NCBI GenBank assembly: GCA_963729625.1
Contig: CAVSOU010000010.1
Coordinates: 704,001-768,000, forward strand
Direction of reading: 5' to 3'
Length of the DNA: 64,000 nt
Origin: an uncultured bacterium
GTDB taxonomy: Bacteria; Chloroflexota; UBA5177; JANWHV01
The stretch's first letter is position 1, and every line of letters begins with the position of its first letter. The position numbers and the translations under genes were made by a program. Shown piece by piece: positions 2,552-42,269 of the stretch. The notes beneath the pieces are model-generated. The model worked only from the letters and a program-made list of their open reading frames with translations, searched no databases and was not told the DNA's origin.

Positions 2552-3763
2552 CTACCTTTCGCCGGGCTGCACCCAGTCGTTGGTGGCAGGTGCTCCCGCC
2601 TGCTCCAGCTCTTCCAGATTGGCGGTGTGCTCGATCCCGAGATCGACGCGTCGACCAAGTCGGGCCGACGCGTCCATGGCGTCGCAGATCAGCGCCGTGC
2701 GATAGCCGTCGTAGAAGGTCGCGCCATCCGGGTCGACCGCTCGGTCTTCCGCGATACAGCGCAGAAAATGGATGAACATGTTGATGTGCGCGTGCTCCCA
2801 GCCAAGTAGGTGGCCCGATGGCCACCACAGATCCATGTAGGGATGGTCGGGCTCGCAGACGATGACATCGAGCAATCCGTCGACGCTGCAGTGCGACGTT
2901 CTGGTTGCAGTGACACGCAATTCGTTGAGTCGCTCCAGATCCCACTGCAGGGTGCCTTGGTCGCAGTTGATCTCCCACGCAAGCATGTTGCGACGGCCGT
3001 ACGACACGTTTGAGGCGTCGATCGTCCCACAGGCGCCGTTGTCGAAGCCGATCACGGCCGTCACCACTTGGCCGGGCCATGCCGCATCCACGTCCGAGGG
3101 GCGGTCGGGCGTGATGACTGGATTGGTGAGCATGGCGGAGACGCTCGTGATCTCGCCGACGAGGAAGCGCGCCTGGTCGATGGCGTGGCAGCCTATCGTC
3201 CGGAGCGCCCCCACCGGCGAGGGTGGGCGCCCGTCTTGCGAGTAGCGGAATCGCGCCTGAAAGACATCCCCCAGCTCGCCGCGACGCAACATGGCACGCG
3301 CAAGCCTTACGGCGGGTACGAATCGGTAGTTATAGGTGCACAGATGCTTCACGCCTGCTTGTTCCGCTGCCAGCCACATGCGGCGCGCGTCAGCGCTATT
3401 GCGCGCGAGGGGCTTCTCACAGCTCACATGCTTGCCGGCCGTGATCGCCGCGAGCGTTGGCTCGACGTGCACCTCGTCGGCGGCGGCATTGTCGAAGATG
3501 CTAATGCGCTCGTCCTCAACTAGCCCGCGCCAGTCGGGGTAGCAGCCGGCAAAGCCGAAGCGCGTTGCCGCCTCGCTCGCCAGCTCCTGCCTACGGCCGG
3601 CAACAGCTACGAGGTCGGGCCGCAGTGCGCTCCGCCAGTCAATATAGGTCAGGGTGCGCAGCGCGTTGCTATGGGCTTTCCCCATAAAGCCATAGCCGAA
3701 AACGCCCACTCCCGCACGAGCGCGTTGGTCAGACGGCGCTTCCATGTAGCCTCGGGCTGGCAT
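2552..3763 (-). CDS. Gfo/Idh/MocA family oxidoreductase
   Basis: GVFGYGFMGKAH Rossmann motif, GKHVSCEKPLA, YNYRFVPA, WWPSGHLLGWEH; ATG at 3763 after GGAGAGGGAGGA. Confidence 0.92.
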   Translation of the reverse strand: MPARGYMEAPSDQRARAGVGVFGYGFMGKAHSNALRTLTYIDWRSALRPDLVAVAGRRQELASEAATRFGFAGCYPDWRGLVEDERISIFDNAAADEVHVEPTLAAITAGKHVSCEKPLARNSADARRMWLAAEQAGVKHLCTYNYRFVPAVRLARAMLRRGELGDVFQARFRYSQDGRPPSPVGALRTIGCHAIDQARFLVGEITSVSAMLTNPVITPDRPSDVDAAWPGQVVTAVIGFDNGACGTIDASNVSYGRRNMLAWEINCDQGTLQWDLERLNELRVTATRTSHCSVDGLLDVIVCEPDHPYMDLWWPSGHLLGWEHAHINMFIHFLRCIAEDRAVDPDGATFYDGYRTALICDAMDASARLGRRVDLGIEHTANLEELEQAGAPATNDWVQPGER

Positions 3764-3912
3764 TCCTCCCTCTCCGATCTTGTGCTCTTTAGCGCAACGC
3801 GAGGATGCGACGCTGCACACGAGAATACGGACGAGCTCTACGCCGGGGACGGGGCCCTCGCGGCCAATGCTGATCAGCTCCTTTATTCTGCGACGTCCTT
3901 ATGCCGAGTAGC

Positions 3913-4995
3913 TTAGACAACTTCGAGCGCATCGGCCACCATCGCCGCGGGATGGGCGACAGACGTGTCTTTCTGATACCAGAACGCCGTCGAGGCGATA
4001 TCGTCCTGCAGCGGCAGATAGCGCCCACCTGAGCGCCAGCCCAGCGCCTGGATCGTCACCCGAACGTCGGACATGAAGCGTATCGGGTCCATGACGTGCC
4101 AGCGATACATGCCAAATCGCTGTTGGCTGCGGTACAGGCCGTCCGGACGCAGCACTTGGTTGAGGCCTATGTAGGAGGTGGAGAAAACGGTGTAGCCTTG
4201 GCCAGGCACCTCGAAGTCCCAGGCGCCGCCGAAGTAGTCTTCGGTACCGGTGCCACAAATCGTGGGAAACGCGTCATCGCCGTCCAGGTAGAACTTAATC
4301 TCGCCTTCGCCCCACCAGCCCGAGCTGTTGACGCCCCATGCGAGGTAGGTGCCGACGTACTGACCGCTGCTGTGCACGCCGTCCAGGAGCGTGTGGACTT
4401 CCTTGTAGGGAAGAGGATTGCTGCGCCGCCACTGAGCGTGGAAGTAGGCTGAGTGGTCCGGCACCTGTGTTTCCATGTAGGTGATCTGGTAGTAGAGCAC
4501 GATTGCCTCGGCGGCGAGACTTTCCACGGTCACCCGCGCGCCGCGCCGAAACGGCATCTCCCAGAAGCTGTTGAAGCCGCCGTACGGATTCACGGCGATT
4601 GGCAGTGAAGCGACGTGGCTGTATTCGCACCAGCCGTTGCAGAAGAAGTCGCCCACCGGCACTTCCACGGCAGGCTGCCTGTCGTCATCCCAGTACAGGC
4701 GCAGGACGAGGCGGCGCCAGTTCCGCGGGTGGGTGGTTAACCAGATATGCTGGATGGCGCCCATGCCCACTATACTGGCCAGACTGATCGTCTCACCCGG
4801 CGCTATGGTGATACTCGGCGATACCTTCCAGCCTTGACCAAGATCGCGAGCCGCGTGCGCGCCCGTGCCCTCGCGCGCCATTCCGCCCTTGCCACTGGCG
4901 CCGGTTGGGTTCTCGGCGCTAATCGAGCGAGTGCGCGCGTCCGAGAGAGACGCAAGCGTGCCCAGGCCCATTCCAAGACCGCAAAACTCACTCAC
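3913..4995 (-). CDS. DUF2961 / glycoside hydrolase family 172 protein
   Basis: TRSISAENPTG...GWKVSPS, VEVPVGDFF, NSFWEMPF, WWGEGEIKFYLDGD, ICGTGTEDYFGGAW, YRWHVMDPIRF are characteristic DUF2961 motifs. Confidence 0.92.
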   Translation of the reverse strand: MSEFCGLGMGLGTLASLSDARTRSISAENPTGASGKGGMAREGTGAHAARDLGQGWKVSPSITIAPGETISLASIVGMGAIQHIWLTTHPRNWRRLVLRLYWDDDRQPAVEVPVGDFFCNGWCEYSHVASLPIAVNPYGGFNSFWEMPFRRGARVTVESLAAEAIVLYYQITYMETQVPDHSAYFHAQWRRSNPLPYKEVHTLLDGVHSSGQYVGTYLAWGVNSSGWWGEGEIKFYLDGDDAFPTICGTGTEDYFGGAWDFEVPGQGYTVFSTSYIGLNQVLRPDGLYRSQQRFGMYRWHVMDPIRFMSDVRVTIQALGWRSGGRYLPLQDDIASTAFWYQKDTSVAHPAAMVADALEVV

Positions 4996-5469
4996 GTGCC
5001 TGTGCCCTCCTTAGAGCTACGTTCTCGAAACTTTGAGATCTTTAACAACGTATTGCCGCGAGGCAGTGAAACGCAAGGCAAACGGCGCCAGTGCTACGCC
5101 TGCCGGGTGACTGACGTGCTCCGACCGTGTCTACAACGCAGCTACGTTGCATACTTGTGGTTCTGAGCACCGTATCGATGCAGTGCTCGTTCCTCCAGTT
5201 GGTCGCTAACCACTTCTCCGCGTGCCGCGTCTCCCTGCTAGGGGAAAGCGACAGAAAGGCTTGAACTGGGTGCCGAGAGGACTGGCACGCGCAGTTCTGA
5301 GATGGCGGAGTGATCCGGGTGCGAGCGGCGTTTCGAACACCCGGATTGATCCGGTATCAGTCCTGCCATTCGCCTTCGAGCGGAGGCTTCGGACTGTTCT
5401 CAGACCGTGGGGACTTCCCCGCCAGGCCTTGCAATTCGTGGTGGTCGGTGCTAGAATTCGGACGGCTGC

Positions 5470-5484
5470 TATAGGATATAGGAT
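5470..5484 (+). promoter_or_regulatory. candidate GntR operator (tandem TATAGGA)
   Basis: TATAGGATATAGGAT, AT-rich tandem in the divergent GH172/ABC intergenic region; its core ATAGGATATA recurs as the reverse complement upstream of gntR (17605-17614). Confidence 0.45.
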
Positions 5485-5644
5485 GCGCGACTTCCCCGAC
5501 CTGCCGTGCAGGCAGAGCAACGCACGAATGCACGGGGCCCGGCAAAGCCTCGTCACTGCGCGGAAAGGAGATACTGAGCCCAAGACATTGCACATACGTG
5601 GAACCCATGCGTGGCAACCTTCCAGTGAGGAGTTAGTGGATAAG

Positions 5645-7030
5645 ATGAGCGAACTCACGACAATTCCGACGTTTTCGCGTAAGCGATTCCTCAAGGTTGG
5701 GGCGACGACCGCCGGGGCGGCGGTCCTGGCGTCTTGCGGCCAGTTGGGGATCGCGAACGTAGCGGACGCCGCAGACAAATCCGCTCTGACGGCCACGACC
5801 AGCCCGGCTCTGGCTGAGCCGGTGACGCTGAGCTTTGCGTCGGTCGTCTCGTCGCCTGCGCCCAACTATACCGGACGGATGAGCGTGATCAAGAAATACG
5901 AGCAGCTTCATCCGAACGTGACCGTCAAGTACCAGTACATTCCGTACGCCCAGTTCTTTGTTCAGATGCTGACTCGTACACTGGCCGGTGACGCGCCCAC
6001 CGTGGCGCAGAACGGGTACCTGACGCCGCAGTTGGCTGCCAACAACGACATCATTGCGACTGATGACTACCTCCGCGTCGCGGGGTTCAAGGCCAGCGAC
6101 TTCTGGCCGGCGGTGTGGGAGCTGGGCCAGTTTAGAGGCAAGAACTACAGCGTACCGTTCACCCTGGACACCCGCTTCACCTACTACAACCCTAACCTGT
6201 ACAAGAAGATGGGCGTTGGCCCGGCGAAGACCTGGGACGATGAACTCGCTATGGCCAAGGCGGCCCTGCCCCTGGGTATTCACGCCTATACGATGTCGTG
6301 GCAGGCGGATATCAATGCGGTTTGGGAGAGCGTCACCAACCTGCTGAAGACGACCGGCGGCGACTTGCTCAAGGTAAATCCGGACGGTACCGCCACCGCC
6401 ACGCTCAACACCGAGCCCGTGTACGAAACACTCGACTTCTTGCGCCAAATGTTCGTTGCCCAGGCTTTCACGCCGGGCGCGCTGACCCATGACCAGACTA
6501 TAGGTAAGGCCGAATTCACGACCGACAAGACGGCCTCGTGGCTGGTCGGCAACTGGGAGATTGCCGACCTCGAAACCCTCTACGCCCAGAAGAAGATAGA
6601 TTTCAATTTTGGGCTGGCACACAACGCGATCAAGAAGCAGCGGGGTGCCTCCAGTGGAGGCTGGGCATGGGATATCTACAAGACGGCCGTGAACCCAGAC
6701 ATAGCTTGGGATTTCGTCAACTTCTTCCTGAAGCCTGAGAACATCAATCTGGGCTGGGCCGATTCGTTGCCCCCAACTGTGGCCGGCATGAACCAACCGT
6801 ACTATGCACACGATCCGCGTAACAAGTTCGTGCTGGAAGTGCTTAGCTACTCAACCTGGGTGATTCCACCCATTGCAGGGTTCATGGAGCTCATGCCCAC
6901 CATGTGGCGCTACATGTCCCGAGTCCTCAGCGGTCAATCGAGCTCAAAGCAGGCGATGGCCGACGGCAATCGGGCGGTGCAAGCGCTTATCGACCGTGGG
7001 AACAACAAGATCGTCAGGTCGAAGCACTGA
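5645..7030 (+). CDS. sugar ABC transporter substrate-binding lipoprotein (family 1), Tat-like signal
   Basis: ATG at 5645 after GAGGAG; SRKRFLK, hydrophobic stretch, lipobox-like LASC; YEQLHPNVTV, GKNYSVPF, YYNPNLYKK, GGWAW. Confidence 0.92.
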   Translation: MSELTTIPTFSRKRFLKVGATTAGAAVLASCGQLGIANVADAADKSALTATTSPALAEPVTLSFASVVSSPAPNYTGRMSVIKKYEQLHPNVTVKYQYIPYAQFFVQMLTRTLAGDAPTVAQNGYLTPQLAANNDIIATDDYLRVAGFKASDFWPAVWELGQFRGKNYSVPFTLDTRFTYYNPNLYKKMGVGPAKTWDDELAMAKAALPLGIHAYTMSWQADINAVWESVTNLLKTTGGDLLKVNPDGTATATLNTEPVYETLDFLRQMFVAQAFTPGALTHDQTIGKAEFTTDKTASWLVGNWEIADLETLYAQKKIDFNFGLAHNAIKKQRGASSGGWAWDIYKTAVNPDIAWDFVNFFLKPENINLGWADSLPPTVAGMNQPYYAHDPRNKFVLEVLSYSTWVIPPIAGFMELMPTMWRYMSRVLSGQSSSKQAMADGNRAVQALIDRGNNKIVRSKH

Positions 7031-7047
7031 GCAGCAATTGCGCAGCA

Positions 7048-7082
7048 TGCCGGCCCCACAGCGGTGCCTAGTGGGGCCGGCA
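7048..7082 (+). terminator. intercistronic stem-loop after the SBP gene (mRNA stabiliser or attenuator)
   Basis: Perfect 12-bp stem TGCCGGCCCCAC / GTGGGGCCGGCA; no U-tract. Confidence 0.6.
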
Positions 7083-7227
7083 ACGCGGCAGCGGAGCTGA
7101 ATCGTATGGACCACTACCATCCTCCCGGCCGGCTTGCCCGCGGTGCTCCTGGCTAAGGAGAACCAATGCTTCTGAGACGGTGCCGAAATCTGGTAGGCTC
7201 TGCCAAGACGAAAGGCAGCCTGAGGCA

Positions 7228-8202
7228 ATGGCTACGAGCGAAACAAATGACCCGTTAGTTCCTCCGTCGGAGTTCGCGGCCGTCGCGACGCGGCGCCAGC
7301 GAGCCGCCTGGCGTTACCGCCTGTCGCGGGCTCTGGCGCCATACATGATGGTCGGTCCCGCGATTATCGGGATAGCGCTCGTTCTGGGGTTCCCGATCCT
7401 CTTCAATGCCTACGTCTCGTTCACCGACACCTCTGGGTACACAGGGTTGGGTCACCACGATTGGGTCGGTCTCGGCAATTACCAGTACATCTTCTCCGAT
7501 CCGGATTTCCAGTCGGCTCTTCAGTTGACGTTCCTCTGGACGTTCGCAAACCTGGTGGGGCAATTGGGACTCGGCCTGCTGCTGGCACTGATTCTGCATG
7601 ACGGACCCTTACGTCTGGCCAAGGTAGTGCAGCCGCTCTGGCTGTTGCCCTGGTTCCTTCCCTCCGTGTCCATTTTCTTCGTGTGGCAGATGATGTACGA
7701 TCCTACATTCGGTGCGCTGCAGCACATTCTGGGACATGTCGGGATCGCATCCTTGAATGGCGTGCTGTCCGATCCGACCTGGTCCATATGGGGCATCATC
7801 GTGGCGGGCGTCTGGAAAGGATTCCCCTTCTACATGGTGGCATTCTATTCCGGCCTCCAGGCCGTCTCGCAAGATGTCTACGATGCAGCGCGAGTTGATG
7901 GGGCCAGCCGGCTGCGGGTTCTGCGGCACATCGAGCTACCGGAACTCCGCGGTATCCTCGCCACCGTCGGCATACTGGGCTTCATGTGGATCTTCAACTG
8001 GTTCACACCCATCTATATCATGACACAGGGTGGTCCGGGCAGCGCGAGCATGACTGTCGCCATCTACATGTATGAGCAAGCAATGCGCGAGTTCTTCTTC
8101 GGCGTAGCCGCTTCGGCTGGCAGCGTGCTTCTGGCCATTGTGGTCGTTCTCTTCGGAGTGGTTCTTGTGGTGCAGCGCCGCCAAGGGCAGTTTGATACGT
8201 AG
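7228..8202 (+). CDS. carbohydrate ABC transporter permease 1
   Basis: WVGLGNY, multiple TM helices, EAA-like loop YDAARVDGASRLRVLRHIELP, MTQGGPG. Confidence 0.95.
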   Translation: MATSETNDPLVPPSEFAAVATRRQRAAWRYRLSRALAPYMMVGPAIIGIALVLGFPILFNAYVSFTDTSGYTGLGHHDWVGLGNYQYIFSDPDFQSALQLTFLWTFANLVGQLGLGLLLALILHDGPLRLAKVVQPLWLLPWFLPSVSIFFVWQMMYDPTFGALQHILGHVGIASLNGVLSDPTWSIWGIIVAGVWKGFPFYMVAFYSGLQAVSQDVYDAARVDGASRLRVLRHIELPELRGILATVGILGFMWIFNWFTPIYIMTQGGPGSASMTVAIYMYEQAMREFFFGVAASAGSVLLAIVVVLFGVVLVVQRRQGQFDT

Positions 8203-8216
8203 CCAGAGGTAGAGTA

Positions 8217-9056
8217 ATGATCGCAGTGCAACATCGCAGACACCTGCAGCCTGGTGATGTAGTGCTCGTCGCAATTCTCGCGTTAGTCTCACTGGCTGTG
8301 CTGTATCCCCTGCTCTGGATGGTTTCCTACTCCCTCCGCCCAAATACCGATTTGACATCGACCGCAGGCCTCATCCCGGCACATCCTTCGTTCGATAACT
8401 ACGCCCGCATGTGGACTGAGGCTCCTTTTTTCACTTTCATTCGCAACAGTGTAATCGTTGGCATCGGATCGGTCGCGATCACGCTCGCATTCGCCACGCC
8501 GGCCGCCTACGCTCTCAGCCGTTTCCCCTTTCGTGCGCGGGGTCCTCTGACGATAGCACTGCTCTTTACGCAGGTGCTCCCTGCAGTCACCTTGATCGTG
8601 CCCCTCTATCTCTTGATCAAGCAGATCGGTCTGTACGATAGTCTGCTGGGTCTGACCCTCGTCTACGCTGGGCTGAACACACCGTTCATTACGCTCCTGC
8701 TGCGCAGTTTCTTCGCTCAAATACCCCAGGACATGGAAGAAGCAGCCCAGGTTGACGGTGCAGGGTGGGTGGGGGCCTTCTTCCTCATAGCGCTTCCGCT
8801 TTCCCGCCCAGGACTACTTGCCGCGGGCACCATCGCCTTTCTGGGCGTATGGGAAGAATTCGTGCTCGTTCTGACGCTCTGTCCGGATAACCAGACGATC
8901 CCTGTGGGACTGCAATACTTCAACACAGAGTATGGAACAGACTACGGCGGCCTGATGGCTGCGTCGGTTGTGTCCTGTATCCCGGCACTTGCCCTCTTCC
9001 TTCTTCTCGGCCGCTTCATTGTTCGAGGTATTGCCAGTGGTGGACTCAAAGGCTAG
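8217..9056 (+). CDS. carbohydrate ABC transporter permease 2
   Basis: AAYALSRFPF, EAA loop MEEAAQVDGA, TIPVGL, C-terminal GGLKG. Confidence 0.95.
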   Translation: MIAVQHRRHLQPGDVVLVAILALVSLAVLYPLLWMVSYSLRPNTDLTSTAGLIPAHPSFDNYARMWTEAPFFTFIRNSVIVGIGSVAITLAFATPAAYALSRFPFRARGPLTIALLFTQVLPAVTLIVPLYLLIKQIGLYDSLLGLTLVYAGLNTPFITLLLRSFFAQIPQDMEEAAQVDGAGWVGAFFLIALPLSRPGLLAAGTIAFLGVWEEFVLVLTLCPDNQTIPVGLQYFNTEYGTDYGGLMAASVVSCIPALALFLLLGRFIVRGIASGGLKG

Positions 9057-9066
9057 TAGACGCTCG

Positions 9067-10677
9067 GTGCAAAAGGGTGACCAGTTCAAAGCCGGTCTTG
9101 GGGCGCAGGAATCGCTGCAGCGCGGTCTCGCGCTGGTCGAGCGCGTGCTTGGTCCCACGCTTGGCCCCCTGGGAACTCCTGTCCTCGTCGCTCGGATTGG
9201 GCGACCCAATGAGCCGCCCGAAGTGCTCAGCGATGCTGGGATCCTGGCCTTGCGCTTGACCGGGATCCCCGAGCCGTGCGCCAATGTCGGCCTGATGCTC
9301 AACCGGCAAGTGGCCTGGAAGCTGCGCAGCGAGATGGGCGATGGCAGCGCCACCGCCAGCGTGATCTGCGCGGCGACGCACCGTGGACTCTTGACGGCCA
9401 CGACGGCAGGAGCGGACCCAAGGAGACTGCGAAGCGGCGTCGAGCACGCCGTTGAGCTGGTCTCTCGGGCCATTACGGCGTCGGCGCGGCCGCTGAGCTC
9501 TGGCGAGGCCGAGCGATTCGTAGCCGCGTCGAGCGGCGATCCGCGGCTCGTGCCGGTTGTTACTGAAGCTATAGCCCTGTTGGGACCGGATGCCGTGATT
9601 ACGGTCCGAGACTCACCGCGCGATACGCCGGAGCTGCAGATTGTCGAGGGCGCGCTGTGGGAATCGGGGCTCGTATCGAGCCAGTTTGGCGACGGTGGCA
9701 TGGGCGAAGACCTCGTCCTGGACCGTCCGCGCGTTCTCATTTGGGATGAGAAGCTTGAGGATGCCGCGCCGCTGATCGACACACTGGAGTGCCTGCGCTG
9801 GAACGGCGTACGCAGCCTGCTCCTCGTGGCACGAACAGTGGGTCCGGCGGTAATGGCGCTGCTTGCCGCCAACAACAAGCCCGACTTTCGCTTGGCGGCC
9901 GTCAACGCGCCCTATGAAGGCAACAACCTGGAATGGGCCCTCGCGGACCTGGCGGCGCTGACGGGCGCACGGGTGCTGGCACCAGAGCGTGGTGACACGC
10001 TGAAAAGACTTGACATGGGAGCTGTCGGCAGGGCACAGCGTGCGATAGTTGGGCGTGGATTCTTCAATGTCTTTCCTCTGGATGCTGCGTCAGAGGCAGT
10101 CGCGCGCCAGGTGGCATCCGTACGGTACAGGCTTTCCGAGAGCGAGAACGAGAGCGAGCGTGGCGCATTGTGGAGCCGCTTGGGACGGCTCGCAGGGGGT
10201 ATGGGCGTCGTGTGGGTCGGCGGTCACAACGAGGAAGAGCGTCTGCAACGGCGGCGGGCGACGGAGCGGACGGTTGCCGGTTTGCGGGCCGCCGTGGACG
10301 GTGGTGTCGTTCCGGGTGCCGGCGCCACGTATCTGGCAGTCGCACGCTGCCTGTCAGGCAGTACGACACACGACGAGGATCTTGGTGTCGCCGCGGTGGC
10401 AGCAGCGCTGACCGCGCCGGCACGGTGGATCGCGCGCAACGCTGGGTTGGATCCCATTGCGGCTGTGGCAGAGGCAAGAGCGGTCGCGCCCGACCAGGGC
10501 ATCGACGGAGTAACTGGGACCCTTGTCCACCTGCGGTCTGCGGGAATCGTTGACCCGGCACTGACGCTGATACGTGCCGTCTCGGTCGGCGCTACCGCTG
10601 CGGCCATGGCAATAACCGGCGAGGTGCTTGTCGTGCGTCCATACCTACGGATCACGTCAGCGGATATACGCCCATGA
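9067..10677 (+). CDS. divergent chaperonin-60 (GroEL)-like protein
   Basis: Full-length Cpn60 layout: PTLGPLG, GDGSATA, IVEGALWESG, AVNAP, LADLAALTGA, RLGRLAGG, GVVPGAG, IARNAG, GIVDPA. GTG at 9067, 10 nt after the permease stop. Confidence 0.88.
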   Translation: MQKGDQFKAGLGAQESLQRGLALVERVLGPTLGPLGTPVLVARIGRPNEPPEVLSDAGILALRLTGIPEPCANVGLMLNRQVAWKLRSEMGDGSATASVICAATHRGLLTATTAGADPRRLRSGVEHAVELVSRAITASARPLSSGEAERFVAASSGDPRLVPVVTEAIALLGPDAVITVRDSPRDTPELQIVEGALWESGLVSSQFGDGGMGEDLVLDRPRVLIWDEKLEDAAPLIDTLECLRWNGVRSLLLVARTVGPAVMALLAANNKPDFRLAAVNAPYEGNNLEWALADLAALTGARVLAPERGDTLKRLDMGAVGRAQRAIVGRGFFNVFPLDAASEAVARQVASVRYRLSESENESERGALWSRLGRLAGGMGVVWVGGHNEEERLQRRRATERTVAGLRAAVDGGVVPGAGATYLAVARCLSGSTTHDEDLGVAAVAAALTAPARWIARNAGLDPIAAVAEARAVAPDQGIDGVTGTLVHLRSAGIVDPALTLIRAVSVGATAAAMAITGEVLVVRPYLRITSADIRP

Positions 10678-12464
10678 GTACATCGTGGGCGCTCCGCGGC
10701 CAGGTCGACGCGTCGTCGATCACACACATCGCCATCTCACCTAGCTTCTCACAAGACAAGACGCTGCTGGTAGGAACCCTCGCCGGAGTGTCCGTCAGCC
10801 GCGACGCCGGAGCGTCGTGGGAAACCCCGGCCCGAGGCATCGTGGGGCCGTTCATCCGGGACGTTGCCCTCTCGCCCACGTTCGCGGTCGACGGCGTCAT
10901 GTACGCCACCGCCCCTGGCGGCTTCTTCCGCTCACCCGACCGCGGGCGGGAGTGGCAGGCGGCGACACAGGCGTCGCTTTCAGGCTTGCTTGCCATCGCT
11001 CCCGACGGGACCTTGTATCTCGTGCCTGACGGAGATACCTGCGTGTGGCGTGGCGCCGCTGCCGGCCGGTGCGAACCTGTCGGTCACCTCCCTGGTGTTC
11101 CGCTCACTCTGGCTGCAGATGCCGTGGCAGGTATCCTGTGGGCAATCACAGAGAAAGGCGTGACCCGGAGCCACGATGGCGGCAGTTCCTGGCATCAGCT
11201 CAACCTTCCTGCCGCGGCGCACTGCCAGGCGTTGGCCACATGTGGCCCGGAAAGCGTGGCCGTTGGCACGGAGGAGACGGGCGTGTTGCTGTATCGCCGT
11301 GACGGCGCCTGGGAACTACCGGCAACGGTGAGCGGACTAGGCGTGACGGCGCTTGCTGCTAGCCACGACGGAGCTACCGTTGCCGCGGGTACGCAGGAGG
11401 GTGTCTTCATATCCTCCGATGCAGGCCGCACCTGGGCCGCACCGACCGAAACCGTACCGGTCCTCAGCCTTGCCATGACGCCCGACGCGGGGTACGTCTT
11501 TGCTGGCCTGGCGGGTGGTGGTTGTCACCGCTTGGCCAATCTCGGTTCTGAGTGGAAGGCATTGCCGGGAATCGGTGGGGCCCTTATCGCAGACCTTCAT
11601 GCCAAGTCAGAAAAGGCGATCGTGCGCACCGTGGATGGTATCATCGCGCGATCGGGCGACGGCGGCCGTACCTGGAGCATGGCGCCTCTATCGGTGCCGG
11701 CGCAGGCTGTTGCCGTGGCTGCAGATACGGGCGACGGATTTGCGGTAGCAACCGACGATGGAGTCATGTGCGAAGGATTGCATCTCAGACCGCCTGTTCG
11801 AGCGGAAATTCGAGGCCTAGCAATCGTCGACGATCCAGTTGCCTGCCCGCTTATCGCAGTGGCCGATGCAGGCGAGGTCGTGCTTTCAGGCGATCGGGGG
11901 GAAACCTGGACGAGCAATACCCCTGTCCTGGAAACTGGGCAGGAAATCGTAGAGATTGCGTTCGGTCGGCCCGGCACCCAGGCAGGGCCGCTGCTCGCCG
12001 TGGCGACGCTTGCCCCGGATGGCATGGGAGAACTGTGGCTCCGTACCCAAGAGGGTACATGGCGACGGTCAGTGGCCCACCATGCGGGGGCAGCAGGCGT
12101 ACACCTTGCGGCGGTTGGCGGTCCACGTGGCATCTTTTTCGCTGCCGGCGCCACCATCTACCGGCCCGCTCGCGTTGGAGCACTGGTGTTTTCCGGAGAA
12201 TCATTGGGTAGCTTGAACGGCGGTTCGGTACTGCAGCTTGCGGCTATTCGGGAACCGTCCGGCACTGTGACCCTTGCCGCTCTCAGTACCGGGGGCGTCT
12301 ACCTGTCGCGCGACGGCGGGCTCAGTTGGTCGGAGCACCCAACCCCCGGTGGGCCGCCTATCACCGCGATCGCGCTTCGCCCCGCGTTGGAAGCGGTTGA
12401 GGTGCTCGTTACGCACGTGGGGGGCAGTGTATCGGCGGCCTCGGTGGGATTCGCGCTGGCGTAG
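10674..12464 (+). CDS. BNR/Asp-box repeat beta-propeller protein
   Basis: Seven S-x-D-x-G-x-x-W boxes (SRDAGASW, SPDRGREW, SHDGGSSW, SSDAGRTW, SGDGGRTW, SGDRGETW, SRDGGLSW); ATGA overlap with the GroEL-like stop; no signal peptide. Confidence 0.88.
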   Translation: MSTSWALRGQVDASSITHIAISPSFSQDKTLLVGTLAGVSVSRDAGASWETPARGIVGPFIRDVALSPTFAVDGVMYATAPGGFFRSPDRGREWQAATQASLSGLLAIAPDGTLYLVPDGDTCVWRGAAAGRCEPVGHLPGVPLTLAADAVAGILWAITEKGVTRSHDGGSSWHQLNLPAAAHCQALATCGPESVAVGTEETGVLLYRRDGAWELPATVSGLGVTALAASHDGATVAAGTQEGVFISSDAGRTWAAPTETVPVLSLAMTPDAGYVFAGLAGGGCHRLANLGSEWKALPGIGGALIADLHAKSEKAIVRTVDGIIARSGDGGRTWSMAPLSVPAQAVAVAADTGDGFAVATDDGVMCEGLHLRPPVRAEIRGLAIVDDPVACPLIAVADAGEVVLSGDRGETWTSNTPVLETGQEIVEIAFGRPGTQAGPLLAVATLAPDGMGELWLRTQEGTWRRSVAHHAGAAGVHLAAVGGPRGIFFAAGATIYRPARVGALVFSGESLGSLNGGSVLQLAAIREPSGTVTLAALSTGGVYLSRDGGLSWSEHPTPGGPPITAIALRPALEAVEVLVTHVGGSVSAASVGFALA

Positions 12465-12508
12465 TCGTGCTCGCCGGCTGCTGCGGCGAGAAATGGAGAG
12501 GCGTGTCA

Positions 12509-13561
12509 ATGGTAGTGCAAGAGAACCGTACACGGATGAGCCTTGCGCAGGTCTGTGCGCGCCGCACGGGGATGGTCAACGGGCTTTGGCCGCACGATGC
12601 CTACCCCGAGCTGCCCACCCTCCAGCCCGGTGCGACGGTGACCATCGCCGACATCAAAGGGCCGGCCGTCATCACGTGCCTGCATATGGCACAATTCAGG
12701 GATCCCATCGCCTATCGCGGCGTTGTCTTGAGGATCTTCTGGGATCACGAGACACGGCCAGCCGTGGAGTGTCCACTGGCAGATTTCTTCGCGGACGGCT
12801 TGCAAGGCAAGAGCGCGTTCTTTTCCACGCCTTTCATGGAGAAGGCCCCTCACTCATACAACTGCTATCTGCCCATGCCGTTCCGCCATCAGGCACGAAT
12901 CGAGCTTACAAATGAGACGGATCGGGTGCTCAACGGCTACTCGACCGTGGAGTATGAGACGCTGCCCGACTGGCCGGAGGACTACGGCTACCTGCACGCG
13001 ACGTGGGATCGACGCACCGTCTATATCCCTCGCGAGGTCTTGCCGCTGGCCGATCTGCATGGGCGTGGCCACTATGTCGGCGCCAATCTGAGCATTACCA
13101 GCACCGAGCCCGATTTCGCGGGTGCCCAGTTCGTGATGGAGGGCAACGACGAGCACTTCATCGACGGTGAAGAACACCAGTCGCTCGACTACCTTGGTAC
13201 CGAAGACTACTTCAGTTTCTCTTGGGGCTTCCAGCAGCCCTTCACAGGCCTGCACGCCGGGATCACCCACGTGAACCATGAGATACTGCCCTTTGAGCTG
13301 GCGGTATACCGGTTCCGTGACGGCAACGTGATCCGCTTCGAAAAATCATTGCGGATCCAGGTGAACTGGGCTTGGGAGTTCCTCCGTTATGGACCGGAGA
13401 CCTCGGCACGCCAACTGCGCGACAAGCTTGACGCGGCCGGTGGCCGGCCGATCGACGTCGCCTCGACCATCTACTGGTACCGGCTTCCGGGAAGCGGGCA
13501 CGTGGACCACAAGCCCCTCCCGGCACTCGAAGACCGGCTCAGTCTGCTAGGAGGTGTGTAA
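12509..13561 (+). CDS. second, divergent DUF2961 / GH172-like protein
   Basis: IADIKGPAVI, LRIFWD, VECPLADFF, NCYLPMPF, MEGNDEHFIDGE, LGTEDYFSFSWGF; ATG at 12509 after GGAGAGG. Confidence 0.85.
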   Translation: MVVQENRTRMSLAQVCARRTGMVNGLWPHDAYPELPTLQPGATVTIADIKGPAVITCLHMAQFRDPIAYRGVVLRIFWDHETRPAVECPLADFFADGLQGKSAFFSTPFMEKAPHSYNCYLPMPFRHQARIELTNETDRVLNGYSTVEYETLPDWPEDYGYLHATWDRRTVYIPREVLPLADLHGRGHYVGANLSITSTEPDFAGAQFVMEGNDEHFIDGEEHQSLDYLGTEDYFSFSWGFQQPFTGLHAGITHVNHEILPFELAVYRFRDGNVIRFEKSLRIQVNWAWEFLRYGPETSARQLRDKLDAAGGRPIDVASTIYWYRLPGSGHVDHKPLPALEDRLSLLGGV

Positions 13562-13669
13562 TGTGCCAGCTCGACCCTGTTGGGCCAGGTAGCCGAGGGC
13601 TCGGTAGAGTGCCGCGGCGGTGCGCGTGGCAAGCTTTAGCGGCCGTGACAGCCAACAAGTGGATGGAGA

Positions 13670-14044
13670 ATGGTGATGCCTCAGACCCCGCGTGAGGTTG
13701 CAGAGTCGTACTGGCGCGCAGAATGCGACCGCGATATCGAGGCAGTCTTGTCACACTTTCATGAGGACGCGGAGTTCCGGCCTGCGGGGCAGATCTTGCG
13801 TGGTCATGCTGAGATACGCACCTTTTACGAGGATTCGTGCGCACGTTTTCCCAGCCTCGAGAACACGATCGTGCATGGGATCGAAAGTGGGAGCGAGGGA
13901 GCGTTTGAGTGGGACGCTGTCTTGGTAGACCGTGACGGTGGGCGTCTCCGGCTGACAGGCGTGAATGTTGTGCGGGTTGAGGACGGCAAGTTCCGCTGGG
14001 TCCATGCCTACTTCGACGCAGGCAGCTATCGGGCTGTCTCTTAG
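13670..14044 (+). CDS. SnoaL/NTF2-like protein
   Basis: 124 aa; DIEAVLSHFHEDA, GHAEIRTFY, VEDGKF...YFD. Confidence 0.85.
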   Translation: MVMPQTPREVAESYWRAECDRDIEAVLSHFHEDAEFRPAGQILRGHAEIRTFYEDSCARFPSLENTIVHGIESGSEGAFEWDAVLVDRDGGRLRLTGVNVVRVEDGKFRWVHAYFDAGSYRAVS

Positions 14045-14107
14045 CGGGTCGCCAGCGAGCACATCTCTGGGGGCCGATCATGGCACGCGTAGCGAGGGAG
14101 AAACATT

Positions 14108-15193
14108 GTGAAGATCACAAAGGCGCGCGCCTACCTGTGTGACGTGAAGGTCGAACGCCCGCGCACGGACGCAATCCAGGCATTCGTCAAGCAGGAAACT
14201 ATCCTCGTCGAGATCGAGACGGACGAGGGCCTGTCCGGTACGGGCTACGCCTATACCATCGGAACGGGCGGGCGGGCAGTGCGCGAGCTATTGCAGTGCG
14301 ACCTCCTGCATCTTCTCATCGGTGAAGACGCGCGCCAGATTGAAGCGCTGTGGCAGAAGCTTTTCTGGGCCACGCACGGTACAACCGTTGGCGTGACTAC
14401 CAGCCTGGCGCTCGCCGCCGTCGACACTGCTCTGTGGGATATCCGCTGCCTCGCGGCGAACCAACCCCTTTGGATGCTCGCGGGTGGCGTGAGTCCCCGG
14501 ATTCCGCTCTATGATACGGAGGGCGGGTGGCTCCATCTGACCACCGAGGAGCTCGTCGCTGCAGCAGTCCTCTCCCGAGACCAGGGATGGCCCGGAGTGA
14601 AGCTCAAGATTGGCAAGCCAGATCTCGTGGAAGATGCCGAGCGCCTCCAGGCGGTCCGGGCTGCTGTTGGCCCGCGCATGCACATCATGGTTGATGCCAA
14701 CCAGTCCATGACCTTTTCCCAGGCTAAACGCTGGGCGCACATGCTCGAGCAAGCCGACGTGTTCTGGTTTGAGGAGCCGCTACCCGCCGACGACATTACG
14801 GGACACGCCCGTCTTGCCAGCTCCACGAGTCTGCCTATTGCCGTGGGTGAGAGCCTGTATTCGGTGAGCCACTTTCGCGAATACCTCGCCGCGGGAGCGG
14901 CCGGCGTCCTGCAAGTGGACGCGGCCCGCATTGGAGGCATTACGCCCTGGCTGAAGGTCGCGCATCTTGCGGAGGCCTTCAACGTCAAGGTGGCGCCGCA
15001 TTTCCTCATGGAGCTGCATGTGAGCTTGGCTGCAGCAATCCCAAATGCGCTTTACGTCGAGCACATTCCCCAATTACGGGCGCTGACACTGCGGGAGGTC
15101 GCAGTGGAAGGCGGCCAAGCCGTAGCCCCGAACGATCCGGGGCTGGGGATCGCGTGGAACCGCGACGCGATTGAGCGCCTGCGTGTTGACTGA
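14108..15193 (+). CDS. mandelate racemase/muconate lactonizing enzyme family (enolase superfamily), probable acid-sugar dehydratase or isomerase
   Basis: AAVDTALWD, KLKIG (KxK), MVDANQ, WFEEP, VGESL metal ligands, VAPH. Confidence 0.92.
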   Translation: MKITKARAYLCDVKVERPRTDAIQAFVKQETILVEIETDEGLSGTGYAYTIGTGGRAVRELLQCDLLHLLIGEDARQIEALWQKLFWATHGTTVGVTTSLALAAVDTALWDIRCLAANQPLWMLAGGVSPRIPLYDTEGGWLHLTTEELVAAAVLSRDQGWPGVKLKIGKPDLVEDAERLQAVRAAVGPRMHIMVDANQSMTFSQAKRWAHMLEQADVFWFEEPLPADDITGHARLASSTSLPIAVGESLYSVSHFREYLAAGAAGVLQVDAARIGGITPWLKVAHLAEAFNVKVAPHFLMELHVSLAAAIPNALYVEHIPQLRALTLREVAVEGGQAVAPNDPGLGIAWNRDAIERLRVD

Positions 15194-15270
15194 GGCTGCC
15201 GTATGTTGACCTCAGTTTCCGGCGCATCGAGATGCTTGCGACCCGCGGTCAGGTGGTGGAGGGAGGCGGC

Positions 15271-16530
15271 ATGGACTCACGCGGCCGCGTACTGGCGGCG
15301 CTGAACCACCAAGAGACGGACCGGGTGCCCATCGACCTCTCCGGGTACAAATCGTCGGGCATCGCCGCAATCGCGTATCGTAAGCTCAGGAGGTATCTCG
15401 GTCTCGAAGAGCGACCTATCCGCGTGTACGACATCCAGCAGCAGCTCGCTATCGTGCATGAAGATGTCCTCGACCGCTTCGGCGTTGACACCATTGAGCT
15501 AGGGCGTGGGTTTGCACTCAACGACGCCAACTGGGCGGACTGGGTACTGCCGGACGGCACGCCATGTCAGGTACCGACCTGGACGGCGCCCGAACGCGTC
15601 GACCTCGGCTGGGTGATTCGATCCAAGACGGGACGAGTCATCGCGCGGATGCCGGACGGGGCTCTGTACTTCGAATCGGCCTACTTCCCGTTTGCGGAAA
15701 GTGGGCCGGATCACACGGATCTCGAAGCCGCCATGGCGGAATGCATGTGGAGCATCCCCTCGCCGCCGGGACCGCTGGTCGATGGGCTCAATGGCGAGAG
15801 ACTGCTCACTGAAGGCGCTCGACGACTTCGTGAAAGCACCGATCGGGCGATTCTGGGTCTCTTTGGCGGCAATTTGATGGAGTGGGGCCAGTTCCTGTAC
15901 CGGAACGATAACTTCCTGGCGCTGCTTGCCGCGGAGCCGGACCACGCCCATGATGTCTTGGAACGCCTCACGCGGATCCACCTGGCAAATCTGGAGAAAT
16001 ACCTCGGCCTTGTCGGGCCATACATCGACGTTATTGTCTTCGGCGACGACCTTGGGATGCAGTCCGGCCCCCAAATCTCACCCCGGATGTATCGAGAGTT
16101 CTTCAAGCCGCGCCATGCCCGCTTGTGGCAGCGTGCCAAGCAGCTTGCCGACGCCAAGGTGATGCTGCACTGCTGCGGTGGGGTACGGCCTCTCCTGCCT
16201 GACCTGATCGACGCCGGCCTCGACGCCATCAACCCGGTGCAGATCAGCTGTCGGGGCATGGAGGCCAGCGGGCTCAAGCGAGATTTCGGCAACAGTATTA
16301 CGTTCTGGGGTGGGGGCTGCGACACCCAATGGATGCTCTCGCATGCTACGGCCGATCAGGTTCGGGACCACGTCGAGGAGCAGATTGAGATCTTGCGACC
16401 CAGCGGTGGCTTCGTGTTCCAGCAGGTCCACAACATCCTGGCGGATGTGCCGCCGCAGAATATCGTGGCCATGCTCGACACTGCTCGCAGCCTCGTTCGG
16501 TCCGCGGCACCACGGTCCCGACCGGGCTGA
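15271..16530 (+). CDS. uroporphyrinogen decarboxylase (UroD/MtaA-like) family protein
   Basis: LNHQETDRVP, FGDDLG, FFKP, LHCCG, NPVQ, FWGGGCDTQ, GGFVFQQVHNI...VPPQNI. Confidence 0.9.
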   Translation: MDSRGRVLAALNHQETDRVPIDLSGYKSSGIAAIAYRKLRRYLGLEERPIRVYDIQQQLAIVHEDVLDRFGVDTIELGRGFALNDANWADWVLPDGTPCQVPTWTAPERVDLGWVIRSKTGRVIARMPDGALYFESAYFPFAESGPDHTDLEAAMAECMWSIPSPPGPLVDGLNGERLLTEGARRLRESTDRAILGLFGGNLMEWGQFLYRNDNFLALLAAEPDHAHDVLERLTRIHLANLEKYLGLVGPYIDVIVFGDDLGMQSGPQISPRMYREFFKPRHARLWQRAKQLADAKVMLHCCGGVRPLLPDLIDAGLDAINPVQISCRGMEASGLKRDFGNSITFWGGGCDTQWMLSHATADQVRDHVEEQIEILRPSGGFVFQQVHNILADVPPQNIVAMLDTARSLVRSAAPRSRPG

Positions 16531-16693
16531 TATCGCGCGACTGGGCTGGAAGCAAGAGGATTCGACTCAATGCGCACAACAATGAACGCCGGGAAGCAAG
16601 AGAAGGGCGGCCGCTTGAGTCTGGGTCCGGAGCGGGATAGGCGTCGTTTGCTGACCGCGGCGGCGACTGACAGGACGGCACGAGGACGGTGCG

Positions 16694-17560
16694 ATGCCCG
16701 ACTTTCCGATCGTTGATGCACACGTTCACCTGTGGGACCCGTTGCACTTCCCTGTTGGCTGGCTTGCGGGCAATGAGCGGCTTGACCGGCGCTACTCTCT
16801 CCCGGAATATCGCGCCGACACCAACTCACTCCAGATTGCGGCGATCGTCTACGTGCAGGTTGATGTCGATCCGGCATATGCGCTGCTTGAACCCCGCTGG
16901 GTCACCGACCAGGCACAGGCCGATGCTCGCCTTCAAGCGATAGTGGCGTGGGCGCCGCTTGAGCACGGCGAACACCTACGCACATATCTTACGGCAATGG
17001 CCTCAACGGACCCGCGCATCAAGGGTGTGCGTCGCAACATTCAGTCGGAGGTCGACCCAGCATATGCCGTACGCCCGGGATTCGTTCGCGGCGTGCGGCT
17101 GCTGCCCGAATTCGGCCTGTCGTGCGACCTGTGCATTGTGCATTCTCAGCTCGCAAGCGCCACCGAGCTGGTGCGCCGATGCCCCGATACGAACTTTATG
17201 CTCGATCACCTGGGAAAGCCGAACGTCAAGGAGCACGGGCTCGATCCCTGGCGCATGGAACTCGCGGCGCTTGCAGCCCTGCCCAACGTGATGTGCAAGA
17301 TCAGTGGTGTGGTGACTGAGGCGGACCATGAGCGGTGGGCGCCGGCAGACGTCGCACCGTTTATCCAGCACGCCCTCGATGTGTTCGGTGAGGATCGCGT
17401 GGTCTTTGGCAGCGACTGGCCCGTGGTGACGGAAGCGTCATCGTGCCTGAGATGGGTCGAAACACTCGACACCATGACGGCTCACCTGTCAATGAGCGCA
17501 CGGCGCAAGCTCTGGACCGGCAATGCGCGCCGGTTCTATCGGCTTCGCGACGAACCATAG
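16694..17560 (+). CDS. amidohydrolase family protein, L-fucono/sugar-lactonase-like
   Basis: IVDAHVHLWD, KGVRRNIQ, LDHLGKP, PNVMCKISG, FGEDRVVFGSDWPV, NARRFY. Confidence 0.9.
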   Translation: MPDFPIVDAHVHLWDPLHFPVGWLAGNERLDRRYSLPEYRADTNSLQIAAIVYVQVDVDPAYALLEPRWVTDQAQADARLQAIVAWAPLEHGEHLRTYLTAMASTDPRIKGVRRNIQSEVDPAYAVRPGFVRGVRLLPEFGLSCDLCIVHSQLASATELVRRCPDTNFMLDHLGKPNVKEHGLDPWRMELAALAALPNVMCKISGVVTEADHERWAPADVAPFIQHALDVFGEDRVVFGSDWPVVTEASSCLRWVETLDTMTAHLSMSARRKLWTGNARRFYRLRDEP

Positions 17561-17604
17561 CGCCGCGAAACCTCGGCTGGCGCCTGGCTTCCCGGTTGAG
17601 TTGG

Positions 17605-17614
17605 TATATCCTAT
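17605..17614. promoter_or_regulatory. candidate GntR autoregulatory site
   Basis: TATATCCTAT, exact reverse complement of 5471-5480, about 160 nt upstream of gntR. Confidence 0.4.
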
Positions 17615-17775
17615 GTTATGGTAGCTTTGACCAGGTGACAGGGGTCCGCCCGACACCAGCCATCACTGCATCGCAGCTTTCGCAACCCAGGCATGGCACG
17701 ACTTGGGGTCGGATCATAGTGCCGGCACGAACGGTTCGGACGTATCTTGCAACGCCAAAGGCGAGAACAGTGAGC

Positions 17776-18468: not shown

Positions 18469-18489
18469 GGGCCGAGGGAGGCGAGGACC

Positions 18490-19569: not shown

Positions 19570-19796
19570 CGGGTCATGCTGCAATTGCATGCGATGGTTC
19601 AACGCAGTCGCCAGAGTCAGCCAGACGACGCTGGCGACGGCGTTCGCGGGCGCGCAGCCGTCGCTCGTAGCGCTTGCCGCTCCAGACGAACAGCGTGGGT
19701 GCACGTTCCAGCCCGCGACCGCGTCCACCGCCTACGGTGCCCGGCAAGCTGCCTTCGACCTGCGTAGGTTGCTGGCCAAATGACTTATGGACTGTC

Positions 19797-38561: not shown

Positions 38562-38765
38562 GTGCGACAGCGTTGGGCATGGGCTAACAACCGGGTGGCA
38601 CCGCGCATACGCGTCGCGCTGGGGTTTGCCCTCGTCGCAGTCGGCTTCGCGGTAGGAGGAAGCACAATCGGTGTCGGATTGACGCTGCTCGGCGTCTTGG
38701 TGTTCCGGACGGGTACTTGTGGCCGCTGTGTGTTTGGCTCCTGCCCGCCGAGACGCGCCCGCTAG
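38562..38765 (+). CDS. YgaP/DUF2892-like small membrane protein
   Basis: GTG after GAAAGGAG; RIRVALG, two TM helices, TGTCGRC. Confidence 0.7.
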   Translation: MRQRWAWANNRVAPRIRVALGFALVAVGFAVGGSTIGVGLTLLGVLVFRTGTCGRCVFGSCPPRRAR

Positions 38766-42237: not shown

Positions 42238-42269
42238 TTGGGCCACCATTCACCAGAAAGAGAGACATC

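Follow-up and report, generated by a model that had tools for sequence, protein, structure and literature searches.

GroEL is among the best-studied proteins, and most of the specialised paralogues described so far come from Actinobacteria, Chlamydiae, rhizobia and myxobacteria or from monooxygenase operons. This report concerns a divergent GroEL-like protein, P0001, and the BNR/Asp-box tandem beta-propeller P0002 encoded immediately downstream of it, in a stretch of 64,000 nucleotides (nt) from an uncultured bacterium of the phylum Chloroflexota (C10:704001-768000 of a 5.4-Mb genome in 21 contigs). The whole of this stretch is referred to as the window. P0001 belongs to a large family of GroEL paralogues and is read as a functional protein. 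With a probability of about 0.55, it is considered to be a chaperonin or holdase of impaired ATPase activity that has the propeller as its dedicated client.

Described Systems and the Present Locus

The closest analogue for how P0001 works is probably the MmoG type. In the accessible parts of the sources, MmoG and the mycobacterial binuclear-iron monooxygenase chaperonin are pathway-embedded GroEL-like proteins needed for one enzyme (PMC7994243), and the gbu clusters have a groEL-like gene next to them that acts together with a GroES-like partner (PMC10653785). P0001 likewise is a GroEL paralogue embedded in a catabolic operon; the clients of the described proteins are a di-iron monooxygenase and the gbu enzymes, and they are likened to P0001 by gene context, not by sequence. 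We know of no propeller partner for the chlamydial GroEL2 and GroEL3, which come from another phylum and from whose models P0001 is remote (83.4 bits against NF038369 and 63.1 against NF038370, with cut-offs of 600). As far as the accessible text of PMC1892554 and PMC5904260 goes, these are extra paralogues without a groES of their own and functionally divergent.

Like P0001, mycobacterial GroEL1 (Cpn60.1) is a GroEL paralogue whose C-terminal tail differs from the usual one; it is non-essential and may have a comparable dedicated role. However, GroEL1 and the actinobacterial paralogues have His-rich or pattern-free tails, keep the catalytic residues and are without the C-terminal-Pro motif or a propeller partner. 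A reference title in PMC5904260 presents GroEL1 as a dedicated chaperone, and tail classes are given in PMC11978752, both as partly accessible sources. Searched by term, the accessible text of PMC5904260 (atypical type I chaperonins) and of PMC11978752 (C-terminal tails) holds no mention of Chloroflexi. Specialised GroEL paralogues are already known, and what is new in the present family is its residue losses, its tail, its partner and its operon context. No publication on a Chloroflexota GroEL-like family or on a bacterial GroEL-propeller pairing was found in the open literature (subscription-only articles are not searchable), in line with an earlier sequence-only reading of this DNA that had named it as the best candidate in the window for an undescribed system.

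A parallel is also offered by eukaryotes. CCT folds WD40 proteins, and in both the CCT/TRiC-WD40 and the BBS6/10/12 relationships a chaperonin or degenerate chaperonin-like protein is devoted to beta-propeller clients. These are eukaryotic group II proteins without a specific sequence relationship to P0001, and the comparison is one of analogy only. BBS6, BBS10 and BBS12 are described as chaperonin-like in the accessible parts of PMC5534436 and PMC9325507.

The Chaperonin Gene and Its Motifs

The two genes of the pair are the following:
9067-10677, + strand: divergent GroEL-like gene for P0001 (GTG start; 536 amino acids (aa), stop-free translation)
10674-12464, + strand: BNR/Asp-box tandem beta-propeller P0002 (596 aa; Pfam Sortilin-Vps10, BNR and PSII_BNR)

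A gap of 10 nt separates the end of the upstream permease gene (9056) from the start of P0001, and the TGA stop (10675-10677) is overlapped by the ATG of the propeller at 10674 to give ATGA. An alternative GTG start at 9037 has a better-placed GAGG 9 nt upstream and would give a 546-aa form, which is the database protein P0003. The sequence-only reading had placed a full-length Cpn60 homologue, with this gap and this overlap, between ABC permeases and a GH172 gene, and the placement is correct. Pfam Cpn60_TCP1 matches P0001 with E 3.8e-32, and residues 8-523 span positions 6-521 of the NCBIfam GroEL models in an end-to-end alignment. The scores nevertheless miss all curated NCBIfam GroEL cut-offs, with 259.1 bits against the GroEL equivalog TIGR02348 (cut-off 582.1) and 309.7 bits against PRK12849 (cut-off 352).

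Motifs were read in a MAFFT alignment to E. coli K-12 GroEL (from NC_000913.3). The GDGTTT of the reference is GDGSAT in P0001 (residues 91-96, nt 9337-9354), VEDAL is TERTV (nt 10261-10275), GYLSPYF is GLVSSQF (residues 201-207, nt 9667-9687) and GGG414-416 is GAG. Arg401 stands in the place of the catalytic Asp398. The GGM tail is absent and the protein ends in ...ITSADIRP, with ADIRP at nt 10660-10674. HMMER alignments to solved GroELs give the same changes, and the by-eye readings of GDGSAT, TERTV, GLVSSQF and the missing tail all hold, including the replacement of the catalytic Asp. At the apical positions Y199, Y203, F204, L234, L237, L259, V263 and V264, which we take to be the hydrophobic GroES/substrate-binding residues of GroEL, P0001 has L, Q, F, I, L, M, A and A; the set is partly hydrophobic and both Tyr are gone.

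The likeness to canonical GroEL is preserved in other respects. In the phosphate-binding loop Asp87 and Thr91 are retained, with Thr90 replaced by Ala, and TLGP, the G-D87-G triplet, G414, G416 and D495 are also shared. Identity to canonical GroEL is 27-29% in each of the equatorial, intermediate and apical domains. An AlphaFold2 model built on the family alignment has pLDDT 92.1 and pTM 0.89; in Foldseek it reaches TM 0.80-0.87 to GroEL subunits of GroES-bound complexes and 0.62 to those of apo rings. By this model P0001 keeps the three-domain Cpn60 fold.

In GroEL, Asp87 and Thr89-91 hold the Mg-phosphate, and the E. coli D398A mutant binds ATP and GroES and hydrolyses ATP very slowly. Given this behaviour and the retained Asp87, nucleotide binding with little turnover is expected in P0001, and we infer that its ATPase is impaired.

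A Clade of GroEL Paralogues in Chloroflexota

The genome carries six Cpn60 genes, of which four are canonical-type groELs and two are divergent copies. Its three Cpn10 (groES) genes each adjoin a canonical groEL outside the window (three of the four canonical-type groELs have one), and the 64-kb window itself contains no Cpn10 gene, as the sequence-only reading had observed for the surroundings of P0001. The same reading held that P0001 is not the housekeeping chaperonin, which is borne out by the presence of the four canonical-type genes and by the trees described below. The fourth canonical-type GroEL (C10:512681-514198, + strand; locus L004) has GDGTTT and VEDAL, no adjacent groES and no GGM tail, and ends in ...KADEDQK.

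A word-indexed search of 5.8 billion proteins returned 59 matches to P0001, the nearest with 68, 55, 52 and 47% identity. The few relatives bearing a name come from Thermomicrobiales, Anaerolineae and Ca. Brachytrichaceae, all of them Chloroflexota lineages, and the 68%-identical relative, P0004, is known as a protein only. Databases annotate these proteins as "chaperonin GroEL" or "hypothetical", so that groEL copy counts are inflated in Chloroflexota and the link to the propeller is hidden. Close orthologues of P0001 were absent from four other genomes of its order and from 400 sampled genomes of the phylum, in which the best matches are other clade members with 35-36% identity.

Two trees were built in quick IQ-TREE runs (LG+G4, E. 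coli root), which leave the deep order inside the clade unresolved. The first has 64 rows, namely E. coli GroEL, the six paralogues of the genome and 57 search matches (P0015, shorter than 450 aa, was dropped). In it, 53 rows, all divergent, form one clade (SH-aLRT 100, stem 0.49) and 11 canonical GroELs stand apart. With 22 proteins from whole-genome loci added, the clade takes in 74 of 86 rows (SH-aLRT 100, stem 0.44). The four canonical-type groELs of the genome fall outside it. Among the relatives that bear a name, the clade is found only in Chloroflexota.

The clade has a clear signature, counted in 74-75 of its sequences against 12 canonical ones. It comprises Q72M (74/74), F195W (68/74), T90A (68/75) and a terminal Pro (69/75 versus 0/12 canonical). 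Asp398 is retained in only nine of 75 members and is replaced by R in 36, by Q in 13 and by A in nine. At position 51 Lys is absent from the residues listed and Asp is present in 44 of 75; R197 is lost and K4 changed, two residues presumably used in GroEL ring contacts. The core of the nucleotide pocket is retained (T30-L31-G32-P33, G86-D87-G88, T91, G414, G416 and D495), with D87 kept in 72 and D495 in 74 of 75 members. P0001 carries all the signature residues (M72, W195, A90, Arg at 398 and terminal Pro).

With a 46-member family profile, the best 150 matches were drawn from 1.84 billion representatives of clusters at 50% identity. Of the 142 that were aligned, 134 have M72, 125 have A90, eight have Asp398 and 101 have the terminal Pro, which means that the signature is present in at least about 130 such clusters; the family extends beyond these best 150. 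On whole genomes the profile scores clade members at about 540-670 bits and canonical GroELs at about 525-535 bits, which is not a clean separation. Seven further members, out of 23 read from loci, were scanned and all lie below the GroEL equivalog cut-off. Deep members score 530-550 bits against the GroEL model, and the 259 bits of P0001 are the lowest among those scanned; by this measure P0001 appears to be the most derived member of the large family. The sequence-only reading had treated it as a single odd gene. Its divergence is real, but it is one of many members, and a second one is present in the same genome.

The basal member L074 (L074:9124-11408, - strand) has GDGTTT, Asp398 and GYLSPYF intact, a groES directly upstream and the ending ...MNVNP. 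From these traits a groESL-type gene in working order seems to stand at the start of the clade, with the ATPase residues lost stepwise, and the C-terminal-Pro tail is suggested to be older than that loss. The deep member L070 also keeps Asp398. The subclade of P0001 (10 aligned sequences) has 60% mean column identity and shares the derived motifs EGALWES, RIGRP..PPE and ...IRP; the apical domain is its most variable domain.

A pattern scan of genome contigs with the 10-sequence subclade alignment, one genome per species, gave 22 loci. Only two are subclade members, L046 (45% identity) and L047 (41%), both from metagenome-assembled genomes of Sphaerobacteraceae. Seventeen are full-length matches that were taken as ordinary GroELs on their identity of 26-31%, and L065, L066 and L067 are weak or partial matches. 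A metagenome scan was rejected, as all its 80 loci are ordinary GroELs with about 27-32% identity and one of the two patterns used also fits canonical GroELs.

Pairwise dN/dS values (NG86) of sister clade members are about 0.04-0.19. The chaperonins of L077 and L078 give 0.036 (dS 0.52), those of L071 and L079 give 0.053, and three congeners of the second divergent copy, also without Asp398, give 0.11-0.13 with a partly saturated dS of 1.3-1.7. The propellers of L077 and L078 give 0.052. As measured in these sister members, the family is under purifying selection and not decaying, and the value near 1 that the sequence-only reading associated with decay is not seen.

The second divergent GroEL-like gene of the genome lies outside the window (C10:1111137-1112807, - strand; L009:7137-8807). 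It encodes 556 aa with AQRTV, GDGGAT and the C-terminus VVKP, in another ABC sugar operon, ordered as putative solute-binding protein, two permeases, 253-aa signal-bearing protein, GroEL-like protein and SDR. URO-D-like and enolase-superfamily genes occur near it, as near P0001. In three congeneric genomes, a conserved protein of 253-297 aa (58-65% identity) is encoded between permease and GroEL-like gene; it has an N-terminal signal or transmembrane segment and no Pfam match. Its copies are:
L009:9048-9809, - strand
L068:5325-6218, + strand
L081:1168-2004, + strand

About 15 kb from this second gene, also outside the window, a 349-aa open reading frame (C10:1126981-1127943, - strand) encodes a half-size propeller orthologous to the N-terminal propeller of a BNR protein of about 660 aa. 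In the congener G003 the equivalent half-size propeller gene directly adjoins the GroEL-like gene (L068).

Pairing of the Chaperonin with the Propeller

Neighbourhoods were annotated with Pfam for up to four genes on each side, in 18 chaperonin-centred loci that include 14 fetched from the 400-genome phylum sample. In eight of them the next gene downstream, in the same orientation, encodes the propeller (the window, L047, L068, L070, L073, L076, L077 and L078; that of L047 was recognised by BLASTP only), and in L075 the propeller gene is one gene away. Some of these loci are kin, as L077 and L078 are near-duplicates and L009, L068, L069 and L081 are congeners. From the side of the propeller, which is found in 81 of 401 genomes of the phylum sample, 20 loci were read from 16 further genera (at most two per genus, two from genome G027). 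A GroEL-like gene is directly upstream in five of these, and two end at a contig edge.

Match coordinates give a broader view. At least 18 adjacent chaperonin-propeller pairs, and one pair separated by one gene, are present in 18 genomes of 12 families (f1, f9, f14, f31, f42, f47, f61, f68, f70, f73, f81 and f82), a lower bound taken from 150 of 649 profile matches. The chaperonin comes first, on the same strand, in every pair so defined. In the pairs read, the spacing runs from an overlap of 4 nt (by coordinates also in L176 and L178) to a gap of about 130 nt; the pair of G016, known from match coordinates only, is about 330 nt apart. The propeller and profile tallies take in the unpublished-flagged genomes G226, G042, G174, G343 and G271, on which no locus-level claim is made. 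In the second tree the adjacent members are spread from the deepest clade branches onward, which suggests that the pairing is old and has been broken up time and again; neither the root nor the deep order is firm enough for proof. The propeller is present in 27 of 29 genomes with a P0001 match of E<=1e-68, against 81 of 401 overall, a co-occurrence that is not an independent statistic because the genomes are kin.

Around the pair, L046 and L047 both retain the order solute-binding protein, permease, permease, GroEL-like gene on one strand. On the other side of the chaperonin both have the GH172 gene, the SnoaL-like gene (62-67% identical) and the enolase-superfamily gene, and the propeller follows the chaperonin directly in L047 and not in L046. 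ABC permease or solute-binding protein genes lie at most four genes away in 11 of 23 annotated loci from several subclades, and ABC genes immediately precede the GroEL-like one in the window, L046, L047 and L072. Elsewhere the gene downstream of the chaperonin encodes a DHDPS, a racemase-like protein or an SDR. In family f50 it is an SMP-30/gluconolactonase, a six-bladed propeller and not a BNR one (L071:10900-11754 and L079:3362-4276), and the GroEL-like proteins of these two loci keep Asp398 and have GDGSAT.

The locus surveys, the synteny of L046 and L047 and the recurrence of the propeller in at least 12 families establish a conserved neighbourhood. Among the clients that the sequence-only reading had proposed, the Asp-box propeller is confirmed as the recurrent downstream partner, but the GH172 oligomers and the solute-binding protein find no support.

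The Propeller

The propellers encoded beside GroEL-like genes are orthologous, with 38-53% identity between families over about 660 aa; that of L068 is a half-size form of 330 aa. P0002 has 27-29% identity to the forms of about 660 aa over its full length. Read by eye, the proteins start within the first blade and have no signal peptide, and from this signal-less N-terminus the propeller is predicted to be cytoplasmic. The AlphaFold2 model of P0002 is a tandem propeller with pLDDT 81.5 and low confidence at residues 339-368.

P0002 shares BNR/Asp-box repeats with GH74, Ycf48/HCF136 and sortilin Vps10, and the family profile matches GH74 (E 2e-23), Ycf48 and sortilin. The model is closest to GH74 xyloglucanases, with TMq 0.57-0.67 and 15-17% identity. 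In GH74 enzymes two seven-bladed propellers stand in tandem and the cleft between them contains a catalytic Asp pair; these enzymes are secreted, whereas P0002 is signal-less, and the likeness drawn here is one of fold. Against NF045728 ("F510_1955 family glycosylhydrolase", cut-off 175), the orthologues of about 660 aa reach 201 and 194 bits, and P0002 132.

Function and Rival Explanations

In the preferred explanation, the GH74-like tandem BNR propeller of the next gene, predicted to be cytoplasmic, is not only the recurrent genomic partner of the family but also its ancestral one. P0001 would bind nucleotide with slow or no hydrolysis and, without a GroES of its own, would serve the co-translated propeller as a dedicated chaperonin, holdase or assembly factor. 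The fixed gene order and the translational coupling point to the propeller as a specific client or partner. In the lineage of P0001 the pair would have been recruited into a CUT1 ABC/GH172 oligosaccharide-utilisation operon, with the result that it is produced together with the pathway that it serves. Physical interaction with the propeller, chaperone activity and an oligomeric state of P0001 are presumed in this account. If the pairing does represent dedicated folding or holding, it would provide a simple bacterial system for the handling of beta-propellers by chaperonins, and would let the role of a chaperonin after loss of ATP turnover be asked.

Several points weigh against this explanation. 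Half of the chaperonin-centred loci (9/18) have no propeller, including the subclade member L046 and the second copy of the genome, and 13 of the 20 propeller-centred loci (f12, f19, f30, f36 and f50) have no GroEL-like gene directly upstream; in f12, f19, f36 and f50 the propeller is encoded apart from every GroEL-like gene. P0002 itself is a divergent, shorter member (596 aa) of the propeller family. The apical GroES/substrate-binding motif is degenerate in the subclade of P0001 (GLVSSQF, TAVIAPL), a poor fit to classical hydrophobic client capture. The dN/dS values come from sister members and not from P0001, for which no close relative was found as DNA. No chaperonin-propeller fusion was found in a weak search, made by Pfam on nine long representatives and by one search for longer homologues. 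What that search yielded instead were Cpn60-Cpn60 tandems, one caspase-Cpn60 and one Cpn60-CHAT protein. A complex prediction for full-length P0001 with residues 1-338 of P0002 scored 0.00, without controls, and is evidence neither way.

The fusions among the relatives of the family have tandem Cpn60-Cpn60, caspase (Peptidase_C14)-Cpn60 and Cpn60-CHAT architectures in P0063 and P0064 (about 1080 aa), P0114 (1172 aa) and P0207 (966 aa).

A more far-reaching form of the preferred explanation is tentative, and we hold it as a possibility well short of even odds. It supposes a bacterial chaperonin lineage devoted to beta-propellers, with a GroEL ring in which nucleotide is bound and not turned over and with an obligate propeller partner. 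The ring would be a cage, scaffold or nucleotide-gated holder of the cytoplasmic GH74-like tandem propeller, and the conserved Pro-ending tail a docking or gating element. Were this true, Chloroflexota would use a module of two proteins for glycan utilisation that has so far gone unrecognised, and the CCT-WD40 and BBS6/10/12 relationships would have a counterpart among the group I chaperonins of prokaryotes.

The alternative that survives best, although rather unlikely, is a stable hetero-complex with the propeller as enzyme or lectin. In it the chaperonin ring or oligomer, exapted from folding, would be a subunit with a structural, scaffolding or nucleotide-sensing part and would not release a client. 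The gene-pair evidence is identical for this explanation and for a dedicated chaperonin, the start/stop overlaps included (ATGA in the window, 4 nt in L176 and L178). The loss of Asp398 with retention of the nucleotide-pocket core would also suit a subunit of this kind, and the new conserved Pro-ending tail could be its docking motif. However, the nine long representatives and the one search gave no chaperonin-propeller fusions, half of the family members are encoded without an adjacent propeller, and the deep members keep all catalytic residues, L074 even with groES upstream, which argues for an origin as a folding machine.

It is improbable that P0001 is an extra, fast-evolving general chaperonin which boosts folding when the operon is induced, maybe in mixed rings with canonical GroEL and the genome's GroES. 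The four canonical-type groELs and three groES genes are possible partners, and family members do occur in varied metabolic operons beside SDR, DHDPS, racemase-like and SMP-30 genes. On the other hand, the protein has only 27-29% identity to canonical GroEL in all three domains, Asp398 is lost, and so is R197, while K4 is changed, both presumably residues of the ring contacts. A generalist would not be expected to pair, in one fixed orientation, with a single orthologous propeller across at least 12 families. Mixed rings with canonical GroEL had been suggested in the sequence-only reading, and nothing in the comparative data supports them.

A role as accessory of the ABC importer, for example in regulating or assembling the permease/ATPase complex from the cytoplasmic side, is very improbable. 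The idea arises from the lack of an ATP-binding subunit in the operon, where the GroEL-like gene occupies a place in which one often sits, and from the ABC genes near 11 of the 23 loci (directly upstream in the window, L046, L047 and L072). However, CUT1 systems commonly share an ATPase encoded elsewhere, and we know of no mechanism linking Cpn60 folds to ABC permeases. In addition, 12 of the 23 loci have no ABC genes nearby, and the deepest propeller-paired members (L070, L073, L075 and L076) lie outside transporter operons.

That P0001 is what remains of a duplicated groEL on its way to a pseudogene, to which its lowest GroEL model score of the members examined (259 bits) and its several lost canonical motifs might point, is hardly credible, since the subclade (the 68%-identical relative and 10 sequences in all) shares its derived motifs, the sister groups have dN/dS 0.04-0.19 and the fold of the intact 536-aa reading frame is confident (pLDDT 92.1), and gene order is kept down to 41-45% identity.

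The Operon and Other Genes of the Window

The further genes of the operon are as follows:
5222-7030, + strand: ABC (CUT1-type) solute-binding protein (Pfam SBP_bac_1, 5.9e-28)
7180-8202, + strand: ABC permease 1 (Pfam BPD_transp_1, 6.5e-21)
8217-9056, + strand: ABC permease 2 (Pfam BPD_transp_1, 3.6e-17)
12467-13561, + strand: DUF2961/GH172 glycoside hydrolase (Pfam PF11175, 2.8e-53), 2 nt after P0002
13670-14044, + strand: SnoaL-like small protein, conserved in the syntenic loci with 62-67% identity
14108-15193, + strand: enolase-superfamily sugar-acid dehydratase-like enzyme (Pfam MR_MLE_C/N)
15232-16530, + strand: URO-D-like protein (Pfam URO-D, 7.9e-21)
16694-17560, + strand: Amidohydrolase_2 family enzyme (Pfam, 1.7e-47)
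17443-18468, + strand: GntR/FCD regulator (Pfam)
18490-19569, + strand: GFO/IDH/MocA oxidoreductase (Pfam)

Divergent from the operon are:
3913-4995, - strand: second DUF2961/GH172 gene (Pfam, 5.7e-93)
2552-3820, - strand: GFO/IDH/MocA oxidoreductase beside the second GH172 gene

The true start of the solute-binding protein is likely to be near 5645 (MSELTTIPTFSRKRFLKV; Tat-like signal read by eye), and that of the GntR/FCD regulator is probably later than annotated, because the GntR domain starts at residue 130 of the open reading frame. Orthologues in L046 and L047 are found for the solute-binding protein in the equivalent position (43% identity), for permease 2 immediately 5' of the GroEL-like gene (51-53%) and for the GH172 enzyme at 12467-13561 (43%). 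The nearest NCBIfam model of the 14108-15193 product is L-talarate/galactarate dehydratase, with 302 bits below the cut-off of 500. No ABC_tran gene for an ATP-binding subunit is present among the genes of the 64-kb window. In a promoter and terminator scan of 4900-20000, sites are no commoner than in shuffled sequences, and there is no terminator-like site on the + strand between the permease and the GH172 gene.

Judged by their Pfam and NCBIfam names, the two GH172 genes, together with the GFO/IDH/MocA, amidohydrolase_2, enolase-superfamily dehydratase and GntR/FCD genes, suggest that an oligosaccharide containing a furanoside is imported and that its sugars then enter an oxidative route of the non-phosphorylative type. 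The GH172 activities given in the accessible parts of PMC8605356 and PMC10115798 are alpha-D-fructofuranosidase/DFA I synthase and exo-D-arabinofuranosidase.

Four DNA read runs contain 0.05-0.10 of the sampled words. Elsewhere in the window, an insertion-sequence-like pair occupies 30723-32194 (- strand), with an HTH_32 reading frame followed by an integrase core (rve_3) reading frame, and a DsrE gene lies at 30062-30421. The region 38700-53400 holds a sulfur-transfer/redox cluster with four rhodanese-domain proteins, DUF302, BrxC-like and thioredoxin proteins, a TauE/SafE exporter and a fusion of pyridine-nucleotide disulphide oxidoreductase with rhodanese.

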